Positions 4,684-61,937 of a stretch of DNA of 64,000 bases are shown one piece after another. Source of the DNA: Heterodontus francisci. Its lineage: Eukaryota. The stretch is from the NCBI RefSeq assembly GCF_036365525.1, contig NC_090411.1:31760432-31824431 (forward strand). Reading direction: 5' to 3'. The position numbers were made by a program, and so were the translations under genes. Each line of letters starts with the position of its first letter. The first letter of the stretch is position 1. Below the pieces are notes generated by a model. The model was not told where the DNA came from. It was given only the letters and a program-made list of their open reading frames with translations, and made no database searches.

Positions 4684-7600
4684 TCAACTCAGGGTGTGCT
4701 TGTCGAACAGGTACTCTCCCATGCCATTGTCAGGGGCTCCCAGTCTCTTCAGGTTGGTGATGTGATCTCCAAGCTTCTTGATCATCTTCACTTGTTCATC
4801 CAAGTAGTGAGTCTCCAGGAAGTCACAAAGCTGGGAGTGGAGAAAAAAAAATTAAACTAGGAGAGTATAGTTAGCTTAAAAAAAAACCATTTGCAATGGT
4901 CTTCACCAGATGCAATTATCCCAGTGCAAATAAAGATGGTAAAAAGTATTGCACATGGGAGTGACACTTGTATCTGCCAGTTTGAGCAACAGGCCAAATG
5001 GTTACAGTACAGAAGGAAATCATTCTGATTCTGTGGGTACATTTAGCCAGACAAGACCAAAATTTACCAAGTGGAAAGTCATCAATTCCATTACACTAGG
5101 AATAAACTTGAATGATTGATGCCCAAGAGACGAAGTGTCTTACGAACAGTTTAGTGATCCAGATCTAGTGTGCATGGTCTTTTACCCAATAAAAGCATAA
5201 AAATAAACCTAAGCAATTTGGGAATGAAGGGCTCATTCCCAGTATCAACTTAAAAATGTTAACAGAGGATGTTCGGCATATCTTTCACAGAAAGAAAGAC
5301 TTGCTGGAATATTAGGTACAATTTAGATCTAATTAATATATTATATCTTTAGAATTAAAGATTGAATAGATGGTCAGTTCAAGACTCACTTGCATTCTCC
5401 TTTAAGAAAAAATATAGAGGTAGAAATTTCAAGGTCCTGGTTATGAACCAGGAACAAGTTGGCAAATCCATTTCAGTGTTTCTGTTGCCAGGAAATTGGA
5501 AGATAAATACAGAGTGAAATATCCTGTGACATCAGTAACAAAAAAAAAAAACTAGCCATCATAAAAAATTGATGGTATTGGTAAGTGTAGGTAGATTGAC
5601 CTACAATAAAAATGGTCTTACAGGAACAAGGTCAAGTAAACAATTATAAACAAACATTTTGACAAGATAAATGCTCACAACTTCAAGAACAGGGGAATTC
5701 CAGTAAAACATTAAGTGGAGATGTTAATGACACTACAAACTAAGGATCTTGAAAGCAAGAAACAGAAAAAAAAAGTGACACCTATAATGTTAAGGTCATA
5801 TGACACATTATGCAGTATAAGCATGAAATGTTTTGAAGGAAAATTAGAATTATTGAATTCCTCAAACAATGCTTCTCACCCCATGGTCTACTCAGGGAAT
5901 TAAAAAAAAGTGAAAAAATTTGATGGATATTCAAAGATATTCTGCTGTAACATTAGAAAGGTTAAACTTTTGATTCTATGTTAGAAATAAGATTGGTGTT
6001 GCATCCTAGTAATATTTGATATTTATACAATACACCAAGTGGATAAGTATATCACATTAATTTCTTTAATACAACAAATAAAATATCTCATAACATTCTG
6101 TAGACAACTAGAAGATCCCCCCCACCCACCATCTCTACAAGAGGAGAGATATGTATTGGAGAGTTTCCTAGACTCATCTGGGATATTTATGACAGCCATA
6201 ATTAAAATTAGGCCATCTGAAAGATGGTAATATTCTTAGTTTTCTCTGAGAAAAAGTTCAATTCTTTAGACCCAAATAAAATGTCCATAAGAATTGGTCT
6301 GGTTTGAATTTAATTAAAAAAGGTGATTTGTAGGGATGTCCACCGGATTTGGTTTAGTCCCTACAAGGGGTTAAATTCATAAAATCACTTCAGACTAATG
6401 AGGAAGTGCTGGAAATGGCTGAAGAGTAAACTAGTGACAGACTGACCAACCAACCTCTGGTAAGGTGATAACACCAGTAAGTGAACAGAAAAGGGTAGAT
6501 TGCAATTATTACCTTCAAAATCATCTGAAAAAAATCATGGCAATATTAAGAACTTACATGAGGGTCAGTGTTGCCAGTGGAGAGTTTGTGCAGATCCAGC
6601 AGACTCTGGTTCACAACCTTCTCCATCTGCAGAGCTCTCTGCATTGCCTCCAGCCCATTGCTCCACTCATCCTGCTCTGGCTTCTGGAAGAGAAGGGAGT
6701 CTTTAGTGTTAGGGAACAGGGTTAAATCACTGGGATAACATTGGCATTACTGGATGCTAGATCAGTACATTGCTGTAGCATTTTTAAAATCCTAGTTACA
6801 GTTCCAATTTACAAACACTTAAAAAATCCTCCGATTACTTCATCCATGGAATTTTACAGCTGTGGCCCATATTCTCCAGAGCAGTTTCCTAACCAAAGAT
6901 CAAAGCTTGACTCAATAATTCACTGCACAGAAACTAATTCGCTTTCTGAATATTCAGGATTTATTGATCTACAGCCATTCGTTCAGGTGACCCAAAGATC
7001 ATATCAACTCACCCTACACCCATCTTTTTTTCCAAAGCTAACAATTTTGTTAGTCTCACTGGATTGAGAACTCGAGGCTTAAATGACAATAAACTGTTTA
7101 AAAACAAGAAACCTTCTCTTAAGCAACCTAAATTGCATCACACCAGACTTGATGGTTTCAATCTAACCTTGATGTTCTCCAAGATGATTCGGCCTCCACG
7201 TTTATTCTGGAATTTCATCAGTTTCTCAGCGTGCTCCCATTCCTCACGTGACTGCTCCTTGAAGAACTCAGCAAAGTGACGCAGGGCAACATCATCCCGG
7301 CCAAAGTAATAGGACTGCAGGTAGAGACAAAATGGGGAAAAAAAAAAGGTCAAGTCAGATCTAGGATCACATTCATGGATAACTGAAGAATGGTACTATC
7401 ATGGTAGATAATTTCCCCATTCTTTGTCTCAATACCTTGCTTTCAATTAAAAAAGCTTTTTAAAAAAAAAAAGTTATGCTGCTAAATTCAAATTGTTTTA
7501 ATCAACTTTTTCCTCAAAAAAGTTGAATGGCCTTCTGTGACCAGTCCAGTAAAATAGGAAGCAGCAGCAATAGAAAACCTTCAAAGGAGCAACAATGCTT

Positions 7601-8270
7601 TTTGAATTAAAGTTTGATTTCAGCACTGGTCTTTTAATTAAGGCAATTTATCAATATTTCCAATTGATTGGCGAGAAAAAAAACTTCTAAAGTCAGTACT
7701 TTTAACATTTTAAAGTCACTGCTTCATGTGATGCTGTACAGGATTTATTCATGTAGAAAGTGGGGGGTGGGGGGAAAGAAAAGGGAGAGAAAAAAAAGAG
7801 GGGGGGGAAAAGCTGCCTAGAACTAGTCAGTATTTCACGAGCTAATCACCCACTTAAATTTCATTGTTCCCATCCAAGTTGGAAAAGTTGACTCGGTTTA
7901 TGCATCTTCAAGATGAATCCTCCATTAGGAGCTTCATAAAAACACTTAGATTTATGTTCAGTCTTAAACCCTTCAGAATAGGACACAGTTACTATAGATC
8001 AAAGGAATAGAGTCCCTATCTTGAGTATTTGCTAGATTAGTGCTAAAGAGAACTTCAGCAGACACATTTTAAAGCCACTTCATTGACCTAAAGAAATTCT
8101 AGCTACACAAAATGCAATGAAGTCACAATCTTAATTTTGAAATGGGCTCCCAAAAATACAATACTAACCATGGACAGATAAACATAAGAGGAATAGAGCT
8201 CCAGGTTGATCTGCTTGTTAACAGCATCCTCACAGCCTTTGTGGTAGTTCTGACACACTTGGGAGGCCAT
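4684..8270 (-). CDS. Ferritin heavy/middle-type subunit, copy 2 (173 aa, 4 exons)
   Basis: Exons 8169-8270, 7168-7314, 6558-6683, 4684-4830. Open frame ending DKHTLS*; GT-AG introns; TATA 8341-8348; AATAAA 4569-4574. Several private substitutions (HKGC, FGRDD, SREEWEH, EKVVN). Confidence 0.92.
5040..6395. repeat. Unclassified AT-rich dispersed element in intron 3 of copy 2
   Basis: 5310-6390 is reverse-complement homologous to 36581-37765. This intron is 1727 nt, versus roughly 280-640 nt in the other copies. Confidence 0.7.
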
Positions 8271-8340
8271 CATAATGTTTACTACTAATAGAATAAGTTA
8301 AGCTCAAACAATAACCTAACTTCACCTTGCACAGCTCTTG

Positions 8341-59779: not shown

Positions 59780-59937
59780 ATCCTTGATTGGTGTCCTCTG
59801 TGAGTATAGAGCTCTGATTGGTTACTGGGAGTTGTTACTCATCAGCTGGAATGTCACTCCCTGTATTTAAGGCGCGCTGTCCACATACTATAAATACTGG
59901 AGCTTGGTAGGGAATTAGGTTTATTTAGGAAGTTAGA
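59780..59937 (+). promoter_or_regulatory. Promoter/leader of copy 11
   Basis: Two inverted CCAAT boxes (GATTGG at ~59786 and ~59816); TATAAATA at 59889-59896, only 41 nt above the ATG. Confidence 0.65.
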
Positions 59938-61937
59938 ATGGCTTCCCAAGTGTGTCAGAACTACCACAAGGATTGTGAAGATGCTGTTAACAAGCAGATC
60001 AACCTGGAGCTCTATTCCTCCTATGTTTACCTGTCTATGGTGAGTTTTATTTCAACTCCTAAGTTCAACTCACTTAATCACACTGTAGTAAATGCACAAT
60101 GAATGTATTGTTTTTAAAGTTGTAATGTAGTGACATATCTGACTTATATGAACAGTAATAAACTTTTCTGTTCCTTGCAGTTGCTGTACTGAGTGTCTTA
60201 AATCTCAATGATTCCCTTTTACTGGGTTGTAAACTTTGTATGAAGTTTAGTTCTGAAAAATACTCTTGTAATTCTGGTGAAAAAATCTTAATGTTAACTT
60301 CTAGATGTATTATAACTTAAATTGACCAATTTATCATTTTGAACATGTTCAAGTGATATTGCAATTAAAGTTGAATTGGTAACTTTAATGGCTAACTTTC
60401 TATTGAGATCTTAGCATTTGTTAAGTAAGTAGGCCTATGTTAACAGCTGTCATTAATTAATAAATATTCACAATTAAAATGTGAGTGCCCATTTCAAGGG
60501 GCACAATGAATTTGTCAATTTTTTTTAAAACTTACCTTTCAGAGACAAAATATTAAATTTAATTAAACACTCCTGTCCCTCTAGTGCTCACTAGGTGAAG
60601 GCCTCTAGCATAGTGGCAGACATTACTTGTCTCATCTCCAGAGACACCCAGGTGTGACTGCCTAGTGAAGAGACAAGCAGTTGGGTCAAACAGCCCCCTA
60701 GTAAGCCTATGATGGAAATGTACACTTTGACCTTAAAAGGGATAACATTGAGCTTAACTTTGTGTACAATATGCATTTTAATTGCTCTTGTGAGATACCT
60801 TGCTAATTATTTTTAATCTTTCCACAGTCCTATTACTTTGACCGGGATGATGTTGCCCTGTGTCACTTTGCTGAGTTCTTCAAGGAGCAGTCACATGAGG
60901 AACGGGAGCATGCTGAGAAACTGATGAAATTCCAGAATAAACGTGGAGGCCGAATCATCTTGGAGGACATCAAGGTTAGATTTAATAAGCAGCTCCCTTC
61001 AACAGATTGAACTGCAGTTTCAATTCTATAGGGTAAAAACAAAATACTGCAGATGCTGGAAATCTGAAATAAAAACAAGAAATGCTGGAACCACTCAGCA
61101 GGTCTGGCAGCATCTGTGAAAAGAGAACGCTGGAGTTCCGAAGGAGGGTCACTGACCCAAAACATTAACTCTGCTTCTCTTTCCACAGATGCTGCCAGAC
61201 CTGCTGAGTGGTTCCAGCATTTCTTGTTTTTTTTCCAATTCTACAGGAATTGGTTTGTTTGACTGCATTGTTTGCTTAATGGTGAACTGTCTGACCTTTC
61301 TCCAGAAGCCAGAGCAGGATGAGTGGAGCAATGGTCTGGAGGCAATGCAGAGAGCTCTGCAGATGGAGAAGGATGTGAACCAGAGTCTGCTGGATCTGCA
61401 CAAACTCTCCACTGGCAACACTGACCCTCATGTAAGCTCTTTAATGTGGGCTCTTGGGTAAATTAGAATTGATTAAACTTTACTGTCATTCAGAAAACCT
61501 ATATCCATAGCTTTGTGCTGTGGTGTCTCTGGATTCTTTAAGAGGTGATGGAGAGGAAAAGGTGACTTACTTCCTGTGGACAGGAAGCAAATGTGTCCCA
61601 GTGATTCTGGGTACTATACATCTATTTATCTTCTAATGCAGTAATTCCATCAATCTCCATTGTATCACTTGCACATCCTCTAGTCTCAGTGCAATAAAAT
61701 TCAAACTCTCTCAGGACTAAGATTTTTGATCTGCTGTTGATTTTGTAGCTCATTTCCCTTTTTTTTTTTTTTTTCTTTCAGTTGTGTGACTTCCTGGAGA
61801 CTCACTACTTGGATGAGCAAGTGAAGATGATCAAGAAGCTTGGCGATCACATCACCAACCTGAAGAGACTGGGAGCCCCTGACAATGGCATGGGAGAGTA
61901 CCTGTTTGACAAGCTCACCCTGGGGGAGAATGACTGA
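59938..61937 (+). CDS. Ferritin heavy/middle-type subunit, copy 11 (176 aa, opposite orientation)
   Basis: Exons 59938-60039, 60828-60974, 61306-61431, 61782-61937. GT-AG introns; ends [15 protein letters not shown] 62074-62079. Confidence 0.95.
61035..61235. repeat. Palindromic element (hairpin) in intron 2 of copy 11
   Basis: Arms 61072-61118 and 61183-61230 are reverse complements (AAAACAAGAAATGCTGGAACCACTCAGCAGGTCTGGCAGCATCTGTG); related fragment at ~33170-33290. Confidence 0.8.

Follow-up and report, generated by a model that had tools for sequence, protein, structure and literature searches.

How can the members of a gene family keep nearly identical exons when the introns between those exons have become dissimilar? 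This question is raised by a stretch of 64,000 nucleotides of Heterodontus francisci DNA (hereafter the window), which is one part of a ferritin gene array of ~605 kb with 91 copies, 68 of which are intact. The first-pass annotation of the window attributed the pattern to ongoing gene conversion confined to exons, possibly templated by cDNA or mRNA. Here, we examine which parts of the genes are uniform, whether the uniformity is attributable to exchange among copies and which kind of donor is the more probable.

A ferritin array in two opposing blocks

The protein hits carry PF00210, the genes have four exons and the best PDB match is the frog middle-subunit (M) ferritin (E 5e-88). Residues E24, E59, H62, E104 and Q138, which we take to be the ferroxidase-centre residues, align to identical residues in the M ferritin structure. 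By domain, exon number and these residues, the array copies are predicted to be vertebrate H/M-type ferritins. The 5' iron-responsive element (Rfam IRE_I) was not found in any of the window's 11 copies; it does occur upstream of the diverged neighbours c93 and c94, as well as in the c94 retrocopy. Its absence from the copies would suggest dosage-driven synthesis that is independent of iron.

The array consists of two blocks facing opposite ways, and copy 11 of the window opens the plus-strand block and lies head-to-head with copy 10 (Table 1). The area is rich in recent segmental and inverted duplications. A second ferritin cluster, at a distance of 5 Mb, is uniform in a sequence of its own, with a dS of 0.81 from the main array. 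Copy 3 has a TATA motif ~74 nt upstream of its ATG and an AATAAA motif ~105 nt beyond its stop codon. Both frameshifts of copy 4 are shared with its mirror copy c37, and copy 4 retains an older base at codon 159.

Table 1. Features of the window; positions count from its first nucleotide.
Feature	Position	Strand	Description
Copy 1 (c17)	exons 1-2 at 321..1327	-	Intact 173-aa ferritin; exons 3-4 beyond the window's left edge
Copy 2 (c18)	4684..8270	-	Intact 173-aa ferritin
Copy 2 exons	8270-8169, 7314-7168, 6683-6558, 4830-4684	-	Introns 854/484/1727
Copy 3 (c19)	12407..14793	-	Intact 173 aa
Copy 3 exons	14793-14692, 13953-13807, 13007-12882, 12553-12407	-	
Exon 3 of copy 3 (126 nt)	12882..13007	-	Most homogenised island; majority sequence without CpG
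Copy 4 (c20)	18654..20509	-	Pseudogene, frameshifts in exons 1 and 4
Copy 5 (c21)	21998..24135	-	Intact 176 aa; its lineage is the source of retrocopy L082
Copy 6 (c22)	27857..30088	-	Intact 176 aa
Copy 7 (c23)	33472..35777	-	Intact 176 aa; intron 2 of 220 nt, the window's shortest
Copy 8 (c24)	39950..42089	-	Intact 175 aa; 3'UTR of class J, as in retrocopy L084/L085
Copy 9 (c25)	44381..47267	-	Pseudogene, 4-nt deletion in exon 1
Copy 10 (c26)	52276..54626	-	Intact 175 aa; unique introns
Copy 11 (c27)	59938..61937	+	Intact 176 aa; unique introns; exon 3 is the majority sequence
Left arm (part) of large inverted duplication	1..31343	.	Mirror at window-relative 120.7-199.4 kb, 93-98.5% identical

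Uniform coding sequence and divergent introns

As first described, copies 3, 5, 6, 8, 9 and 11 share one exon 3 sequence (at 12882, 22532, 28607, 40441, 44796 and 61306, respectively), from which the exon departs by 1 nt in copies 7 and 10 and by 2 nt in copies 2 and 4. The identity thus includes pseudogene copy 9, whose exon 3 is the array majority while its other exons carry eight private changes. Across the array, 1385 copy pairs have unalignable introns, and 391 of these pairs match fully in exon 3. Identity this high is limited to exon 3. Diversity in exons 1 to 4 of the 68 intact copies is 0.070, 0.036, 0.016 and 0.024, respectively, and pairwise dS within the window ranges from 0.03 to 0.22, with a median of 0.09. 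Exon 1, which falls into two haplotype groups, and exon 2 of copy 10 are far from identical to their counterparts; the latter matches at just 131-133 of 147 nt and has partly escaped homogenisation, yet exon 3 of the same copy is 1 nt off. The exons also hold many private and mosaic variants. The extra uniformity of exon 3 is only partly explained: its sequence lacks CpG, a property also of exons 1 and 4, and singletons are no sparser in it (22 vs 14-21 per 100 nt). Identity was said to fall off near splice junctions, and silent diversity does rise from 0.046 to 0.129 in the 15 nt next to exon ends (p = 0.0005), but some of the ends counted, at the ATG and the C terminus, are not splice junctions.

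Intron 2 varies greatly in length, from 220 nt (225 nt in the earlier description) to 860 nt in copies 2-11, and is 3661 nt long in copy 1. Intron similarity was judged by z-scores against shuffled sequences; global intron identity was dropped as a distance, as unrelated introns reach 0.70-0.80 under the gap costs used. The introns of copies 2, 3, 10 and 11 had been called barely alignable, which is true of 11 of the 18 comparisons (z ≤ 3), but copies 2 and 3 are still homologous in introns 1 and 2 (z of 10 and 9, respectively). Across the array, each intron half falls into 18-21 classes, many of them at random-level similarity to each other, that have the same exon 3 in common. The UTRs, with 11 classes of 5'UTR and 18 classes of 3'UTR, show intron-like divergence.

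Shared sequence and exchanged variants extend 8-17 nt into the introns. Confinement of conversion to exons, as originally worded, is therefore inexact: the coding sequence does bound the homogenised zone, but the UTRs behave like introns and a short intronic fringe is included. Overall, sister differences are no more frequent near junctions than deep in introns (60/2564 vs 833/38555, p = 0.53), so the evidence for spill-over comes from recurrence and not from rate. Intronic changes ≤12 nt from junctions recur at the same site with the same alleles in 36 event pairs, vs 5.9 in simulations (0/20000), and a two-base haplotype at positions +6/+9 of intron 2 recurs in 3 of 24 sister pairs. Swaps of whole introns or 3' ends are found in c51/55/57/60/63/67, c86, c74, c52 vs c54, and c21 with c35. 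For instance, intron 2 of copy 5 (c21) starts with the sequence of the inverted copy c35 (60/60 nt) and not with that of its sister c36. Long tracts also reset introns, which makes intron distance unsuitable as a clock. Linkage across junctions is not raised (r2 of 0.006-0.015 vs 0.039-0.048 inside exons).

Exchange among copies and its probable donor

Silent divergence relates to intron divergence in two phases. Among 2278 intact pairs, four-fold divergence is 0.020, 0.038 and 0.068 where intron p is 0.013, 0.035 and 0.065, respectively, and then levels at 0.059-0.084 as far as the pairs with unalignable introns, which make up 1385 of the 2278 and have a dS of ~0.064 in exons 2-4. Between sister copies, differences are found at 21/1026 four-fold, 48/2250 two-fold and 42/5850 zero-fold sites (18 intact pairs) and at 833/38555 deep intron sites (24 pairs). 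The four-fold rate (0.020) matches the intron rate (0.022), so that silent sites are not constrained, and the subsequent plateau at 0.06-0.08 argues for homogenisation rather than silent-site constraint. The duplications are older than sequence similarity implies. Furthermore, 74 of the 130 differences between sisters at non-CpG sites are variants also found outside the clade; the count is 47/74 for silent-class differences (~33% expected, p = 8e-8) and 27/56 for zero-fold differences (14% expected, p = 1e-9).

Conversion had also been thought to reach inverted copies, and the exon 2-4 distance between copies with unalignable introns is indeed 0.0258 for same-strand and 0.0264 for opposite-strand pairs. 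Exon distance is nearly flat with genomic distance, at 0.024-0.027 from <20 kb to >300 kb. Conversion biased towards neighbours might predict a slope, and in this respect the flatness speaks against the explanation that we favour.

Across sharks, proteins cluster by lineage (30 label changes vs 86.9 when shuffled) in a quick tree of 118 rows with few strongly supported branches. Protein p is 0.036 within the array vs 0.077-0.118 to other species, and comparable ferritin expansions are found in ten other shark genera. The tree leaves close genera unsplit, namely two bamboo sharks, two catsharks and two lamniforms.

The divergence plateau, the imported variants, the intronic exchange and the lineage-specific sequence all bear out the original suggestion of ongoing interlocus gene conversion. 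We propose, with a probability of about 0.82, that short DNA-to-DNA interlocus conversion tracts maintain the coding uniformity of this ~90-copy array. The recombination mechanism, tract lengths and oocyte dosage that we infer are as follows. Tracts would keep copying among paralogues wherever homology persists, and purifying selection on the protein, presumably a high-dosage oocyte ferritin, would keep the coding islands similar enough to serve as substrates, while the introns and UTRs of old copies would have drifted beyond the homology threshold. A tract starting in an exon would stall ~10-20 nt from its edge; between related copies tracts would run further and take whole introns or 3' ends with them. 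Such conversion would level silent sites and the exons of pseudogenes even though neither is under selection, regardless of orientation and over 600 kb. The evidence from pseudogenes is modest: groups sharing lesions have no exon-3 variants vs 3.1-4.7 expected (P of 0.01-0.05), and the c20/c37 pair is uninformative. The pooled count for six pseudogenes (0 vs 8.5 expected) covers time preceding the lesions and was dropped as a headline.

Could reverse-transcribed ferritin mRNA be the main donor, so that homogenisation tracks the spliced message? cDNA does reach the germline, as eight intronless loci (seven events) on other contigs are derived from the array, three with visible poly(A). The cluster is described as ovary-expressed in the Greenland shark (10.1101/2024.09.09.611499), spliced contigs cover it very deeply in organism B, the 5' exon is the most diverse, and orientation and distance matter little. 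However, all 246 of 246 introns are present in the 82 four-exon copies, and 864 kb contain no exon-exon junction match. Exchanged intronic bases and whole introns are beyond the reach of a spliced donor, the 3'UTR, always included in cDNA, is split into its 18 classes, linkage is not raised across junctions and the most uniform exon is exon 3, not exon 4. The retrocopies, which would be the best cDNA substrates, decay rather than homogenise (32/397, 35/500 and 15/224 differences from the majority). The intronic exchange, the lack of intron loss and the decaying retrocopies favour DNA-to-DNA conversion over a cDNA template, and cDNA as the main route is largely refuted and very improbable. Given the germline retrocopies, a minor cDNA contribution may be considered, although it is not favoured as the main route. 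It is very unlikely that in shark oocytes, where array mRNA would be plentiful and is evidently reverse-transcribed, RNA or cDNA serves as an extra repair donor for exon centres, above all of exon 3, on top of DNA-to-DNA conversion; if it did, this would explain the indifference to distance and orientation over 600 kb and how 126-nt islands suffice.

We consider it equally hard to credit that there is no exchange and that old copies stay alike through nucleotide-level constraint (codon use, RNA structure or splicing signals) or through a low rate of mutation in exons. The lack of CpG in exons 1, 3 and 4 is in its favour, as is exon 3, for which organisms B and D show no fixed difference among the matches listed and one spliced contig of organism C shows 0 differences. 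Against it, sister silent sites diverge at the intron rate and then reach a plateau rather than follow a lower slope, variants are imported and array-wide differences are fixed between species: in contigs of organisms B and D, three silent changes reach 89-100% of depth, against 0, 2 and 0 of 82 copies here, and K68A is at 79-91% of depth. Neighbouring ferritins c92-94 and the second cluster differ at dS of 0.8-1.3, and the retrocopies depart from the array more often at silent-class (39/764) than at zero-fold sites (44/1363, p = 0.036).

Birth-and-death of young duplicates with replaced or abnormally fast introns, or unequal crossing-over alone, is less credible again. Recent segmental and inverted duplications are plentiful, and some intron swaps could be crossovers resolved within exons instead of conversions. 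However, the intron classes share one exon 3, birth-and-death under purifying selection predicts a dS that grows with copy age under a low dN and not a plateau, and opposite-strand crossovers would invert the DNA between them, yet such pairs are equally homogenised. Retrocopy L084 also argues against it. L084 has a class-J 3'UTR, yet carries N106 and, in the third position of codon 159, a G, as do most other sharks; the other base is now found in 66/68 (N106) and 68/68 (codon 159) intact copies of all classes, and the older codon-159 base survives in three pseudogenes. L084 thus places the class-J 3'UTR before the spread of the present residues. Least probable of all, that assembly polishing pulled the exons towards one sequence would fit the runs holding 87-91% of words, which are probably the assembly's own sample, but is opposed by the private and mosaic variants and the two exon 1 groups, by the same within-lineage protein uniformity in independent shark assemblies and by an organism E contig that joins exon 3 to the intron 2 of copy 3 with three differences in 196 nt. 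Another piece of copy-3 intron in organism E has four differences in 149 nt, with slight exon cover; in organism D exon differences are seen, without cover of the copy-3 intron.

Comparison with known systems

The array is an unusually large vertebrate case, with ~90 copies, homology islands of 102-147 nt and both orientations. A dated inverted duplication, pseudogenes, fossil-like retrocopies and an independent second cluster serve as internal controls, through which the minimum homology and the tract length of ectopic conversion can be measured in a vertebrate that evolves slowly. Consequences for other work are that shark ferritin expansions, as discussed in genome papers, will yield misleading dS dates and copy counts, and that short reads are unable to assign expression to individual ferritin copies. 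Among nematodes, the nsp families (Thomas 2006) are reportedly to be named alongside the Caenorhabditis cases considered below.

In the Greenland shark, >100 ferritin copies are reported in three clusters syntenic with the white shark, the largest being ovary-specific in expression (10.1101/2024.09.09.611499). The words "conversion" and "concerted" are absent from the main text of that report, and its copies are named FTH1/FTL, whereas the array here best matches the frog middle-subunit ferritin. Gene conversion or concerted evolution has been reported for mammalian X-linked ferritin heavy-chain-like families (PMC2724270, PMC5363321), a different and much smaller family as described there. We found no paper that unites the shark ferritin expansion with coding-restricted concerted evolution, each of which has been published separately.

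Long-lived concerted pairs in mammals, such as BMP8A/B, DDX19A/B and TUBG1/2 (PMC2720389), and the L/M opsins resemble the shark array in their mosaic, long-term vertebrate conversion, which includes one inverted pair. Unlike in the shark array, the converted zones of the mammalian pairs take in introns, as described (PMC2720389), and the L/M opsins present the reverse pattern, in which introns are homogenised and an exon is kept apart. The concerted Caenorhabditis paralogues col-12/col-13, hsp16-48 and hsp70 (PMC3966223) share with the array near-identical ORFs, diverged flanks, clustering by species and both orientations; they differ in that the worm tracts, as reported, often take in short introns and act in pairs, whereas shark introns of 200-4000 nt mostly escape in a pool of ~90 genes. 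A parallel in pattern and cause comes from yeast whole-genome duplicates, whose concerted evolution is restricted to coding regions (Fawcett and Innan 2011, PMC3924837): conversion is coding-only, non-coding homology is lost and the cause given is purifying selection that keeps the coding sequence convertible. Unlike those duplicates, the shark array has ~90 tandem copies with three introns each, so that the substrate is 102-147-nt islands with short intronic spill. The array is most likely a large example of a known process and not evidence for RNA-guided copying.

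Organization of the ferritin array

The repeat unit is a four-exon ferritin gene (coding exons of 102, 147, 126 and 147-156 nt), whose top match among solved structures is the frog middle-subunit ferritin and whose column-majority protein agrees at 169 of 169 residues with database proteins that carry the label Heterodontus francisci. A search of its own genome revealed that the array extends past both limits of the window, with 91 copies (82 with four exons and 68 intact) in the 864 kb surveyed, from -115 kb to +488 kb relative to the window. The strand switches within the window (26 copies on minus and 65 on plus), and the left block is largely mirrored by the right block, which provides sister copies of known closeness. 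This inverted duplication could be a real palindrome with arm-to-arm conversion, or could partly represent two haplotypes. A retrotransposon-like insertion, judged by eye to carry a LINE-type reverse transcriptase, is missing from the mirror arm (arm-alignment gap 8677-10578).

The array is followed, from +495 to +553 kb, by three divergent ferritin genes and a solitary exon. An iron-responsive element is present at two diverged neighbors, c93 and c94, and was not found in the 11 array copies of the window. The second cluster, which runs on past the tabulated stretch, has a uniform sequence of its own (dS 0.81 from the window's array) and a weaker exon-intron contrast, with dS of 0.05-0.12 vs. 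intron divergence of 0.09-0.15 between two classes.

Features of the ferritin array and its surroundings
Feature	Location	Description	Identity or divergence
Inverted duplication	G000:C41, window-relative -66 kb to +31 kb vs. +121 to +199 kb	Spacer of ~90 kb	Arms 93-98.5% identical
Insertion	window:8680-10580	Retrotransposon-like	
Copy 10 exon 2	window:53437-53583	Divergent exon	~14 differences
c92-c94 (L064-L066)	window-relative +495 to +518 kb	Three diverged single ferritins bordering the array	dS 0.95-1.3 from the array
Cluster 2 (L104-L115)	C41, 26.667-26.772 Mb	At least 9 intact copies; distinct subfamily; two alternating intron types	

Homogenization of the coding sequence

The first-pass annotation claimed that exon 3 reads identically, silent sites included, in several window copies, and sequence comparison of these copies proved this exact. 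Array-wide, the majority exon 3 is carried by 37 of the 68 intact copies, and exon 3 is identical in 391 of the 1385 pairs whose introns do not align. Diversity is lowest in exon 3 (0.070, 0.036, 0.016 and 0.024 for exons 1-4), and the median dS in the window is 0.09 (28 pairs of 8 intact copies). Exon 3 is nearly devoid of intermediate-frequency variants, with a normal singleton density; this dearth would be consistent with an earlier sweep or with a hotspot of initiation. Across all copies, exon 1 has two haplotype groups defined by silent sites (positions 6, 9, 42, 60, 93 and 96), which mostly track 173-aa vs. 175/176-aa genes, and recombinants exist. The differences in exon 2 of copy 10 are bunched at the exon ends, with a difference of 1 nt in exon 3 of that copy; exon 2 may have escaped homogenization as a single exon or have been selected for difference.

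The coding uniformity results from homogenization, not constraint. Uniform nucleotide-level constraint, as a cause of exon likeness, predicts a lower slope from the outset; when all 2278 intact pairs were binned by intron divergence, four-fold divergence instead tracked introns one-to-one to ~0.065 and then reached a plateau of 0.059-0.084 as introns became unalignable. In disjoint sister pairs, differences are equally frequent at four-fold (21/1026), two-fold (48/2250) and deep-intron sites (833/38555), and zero-fold sites show one third of the deep-intron frequency. Moreover, 74 of 130 non-CpG coding sister differences are alleles found in unrelated copies, far exceeding chance as estimated under an assumed 3:1 transition weight. 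The data argue modestly that broken copies take part in homogenization: pseudogenes c51/55/60/67 and c57/63 have 0 exon 3 variants vs. 3.1-4.7 expected (P 0.01-0.05), and the c20/c37 pseudogene pair is uninformative on exon 3. Homogeneity is equal across orientation and across distance within the array.

The proposal that homogenization is confined to exons holds insofar as introns diverge, but UTRs diverge too and identity overruns the junctions. Likewise, the suggested drop near splice junctions is reflected in silent diversity that climbs toward exon ends, but the profile has no step at the splice site. In unalignable pairs, above-outgroup identity extends beyond the junctions by ~17 nt in intron 1, 8 nt in intron 2 and 7 nt in intron 3, and is lost upstream of the ATG in exon 1 and ~9-11 nt beyond the last shared codon block in exon 4. 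The UTRs form 11 (5'UTR) and 18 (3'UTR) classes, similar to the 18-21 of intron halves, and poly(A)-bearing retrocopies confirm that the 3'UTRs are part of the mRNA. Given this spill of identity into introns and the divergence of UTRs, the unit of homogenization is the coding sequence, not the exon.

DNA or cDNA as the possible donor

At intronic sites flanking the junctions, independent sister pairs repeatedly show the same allele switch (7 pairs at the intron 2 acceptor -9, 4 at the intron 3 acceptor -3 and 3 for the +6/+9 pair), with 36 coincident event pairs near junctions vs. 5.9 in simulations; the overall difference rate near junctions in sister pairs is not raised. Whole introns and 3' ends are also exchanged between lineages, even across the inversion. 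For example, the start of copy 5 intron 2 equals that of c35, an array copy outside the window, at 60 of 60 nt and differs from that of its sister c36, and c52 and c54 have an intron p of 0.005, yet different 3'UTR classes. Because of these intronic switches and whole-intron and 3'-end moves, a spliced template cannot be their source. No intron was lost (0/246), and no exon-exon junction was found in the 864-kb region.

Other contigs carry 15 intronless ferritin loci (L081-L095). Among these are 8 array retrocopies, of which one duplicates another (L084/L085, 101 kb apart), 2 cluster-2-like loci, 1 locus derived from c94 and 3 that go back to a different ferritin. The c94 retrocopy, L095, retains the iron-responsive element. 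Older array retrocopies have decayed by 7-8% (5% at zero-fold sites), so no trans-acting cDNA keeps retrocopies uniform. Exchanged intronic sequence, retained introns and decayed retrocopies speak against the suggested cDNA or mRNA template, and cDNA is unlikely as the main conversion template. Since the retrocopies demonstrate that cDNA reaches the germline, a small RNA-templated share may exist besides DNA donors.

Turnover between species and relation to known systems

Proteins of 12 other shark species, one chimaera and two amphibians were aligned with those of the array, within which the median distance is 0.036, compared with 0.077-0.118 between the array and other sharks. In a quick protein tree of 118 rows (18/68 array copies, 18/61 of Pristiophorus and 18/30 of Heptranchias, with horn-shark database rows excluded), species labels required 30 changes vs. 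86.9 when shuffled, and the 18 array copies required 2. Heptranchias, Pristiophorus and carpet sharks formed separate groups and close genera were intermixed. A 90-aa record labelled "Salmonella Typhimurium ferritin, partial" (P0164, 308-nt contig), which groups with shark ferritins, is probably mislabelled or a contaminant. Among the matches listed, contigs of organisms B and D aligned to copy 3 show three silent changes (89-100% of depth) and K68A (79-91% of depth); the three silent alleles are carried by 0, 2 and 0 of the 82 array copies.

The 3'UTR of retrocopy L084/L085 clearly belongs to class J (score 217 vs. 91 for the next class), and the retrocopy carries N106 (8/13 other species) and, in codon 159, a third-position G (10/13). 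The alternative base is now found in 66/68 (residue 106) and 68/68 (codon 159) intact copies, in every class, and the old codon-159 base is kept only in three pseudogenes. Our interpretation is that new alleles spread over pre-existing 3'UTR classes; the retrocopy could instead have back-mutated, but this would take two non-CpG hits.

Conversion requires homology and lasts where purifying selection keeps that homology, as earlier studies established (PMC3924837, PMC3966223). The observations comprise a plateau in divergence, variants imported from other copies, exchange of intronic sequence, lineage-specific sequence and homogeneity independent of orientation and distance; to these, the proposed mechanism would add short tracts that begin within coding islands and halt at heterology. 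The Greenland shark ferritin cluster is described as ovary-specific in expression in a preprint (10.1101/2024.09.09.611499); because of this expression, and of window copies that lack the iron-responsive element found at c93 and c94, selection may favor high ferritin dosage in oocytes. In the organism B library (run X5, window:12250-15050), 29,815 contigs fall on the four exons with very high summed depth and spliced joints, indicating that the family is massively expressed in some tissue.

The same preprint reports the shark ferritin expansion, and its main text contains neither "conversion" nor "concerted" (10.1101/2024.09.09.611499). No publication on concerted evolution of the shark ferritin array was found in a search that covered subscription journals thinly. 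Coding-restricted concerted evolution is itself an already known process, of which this array is a real and unusually large case.
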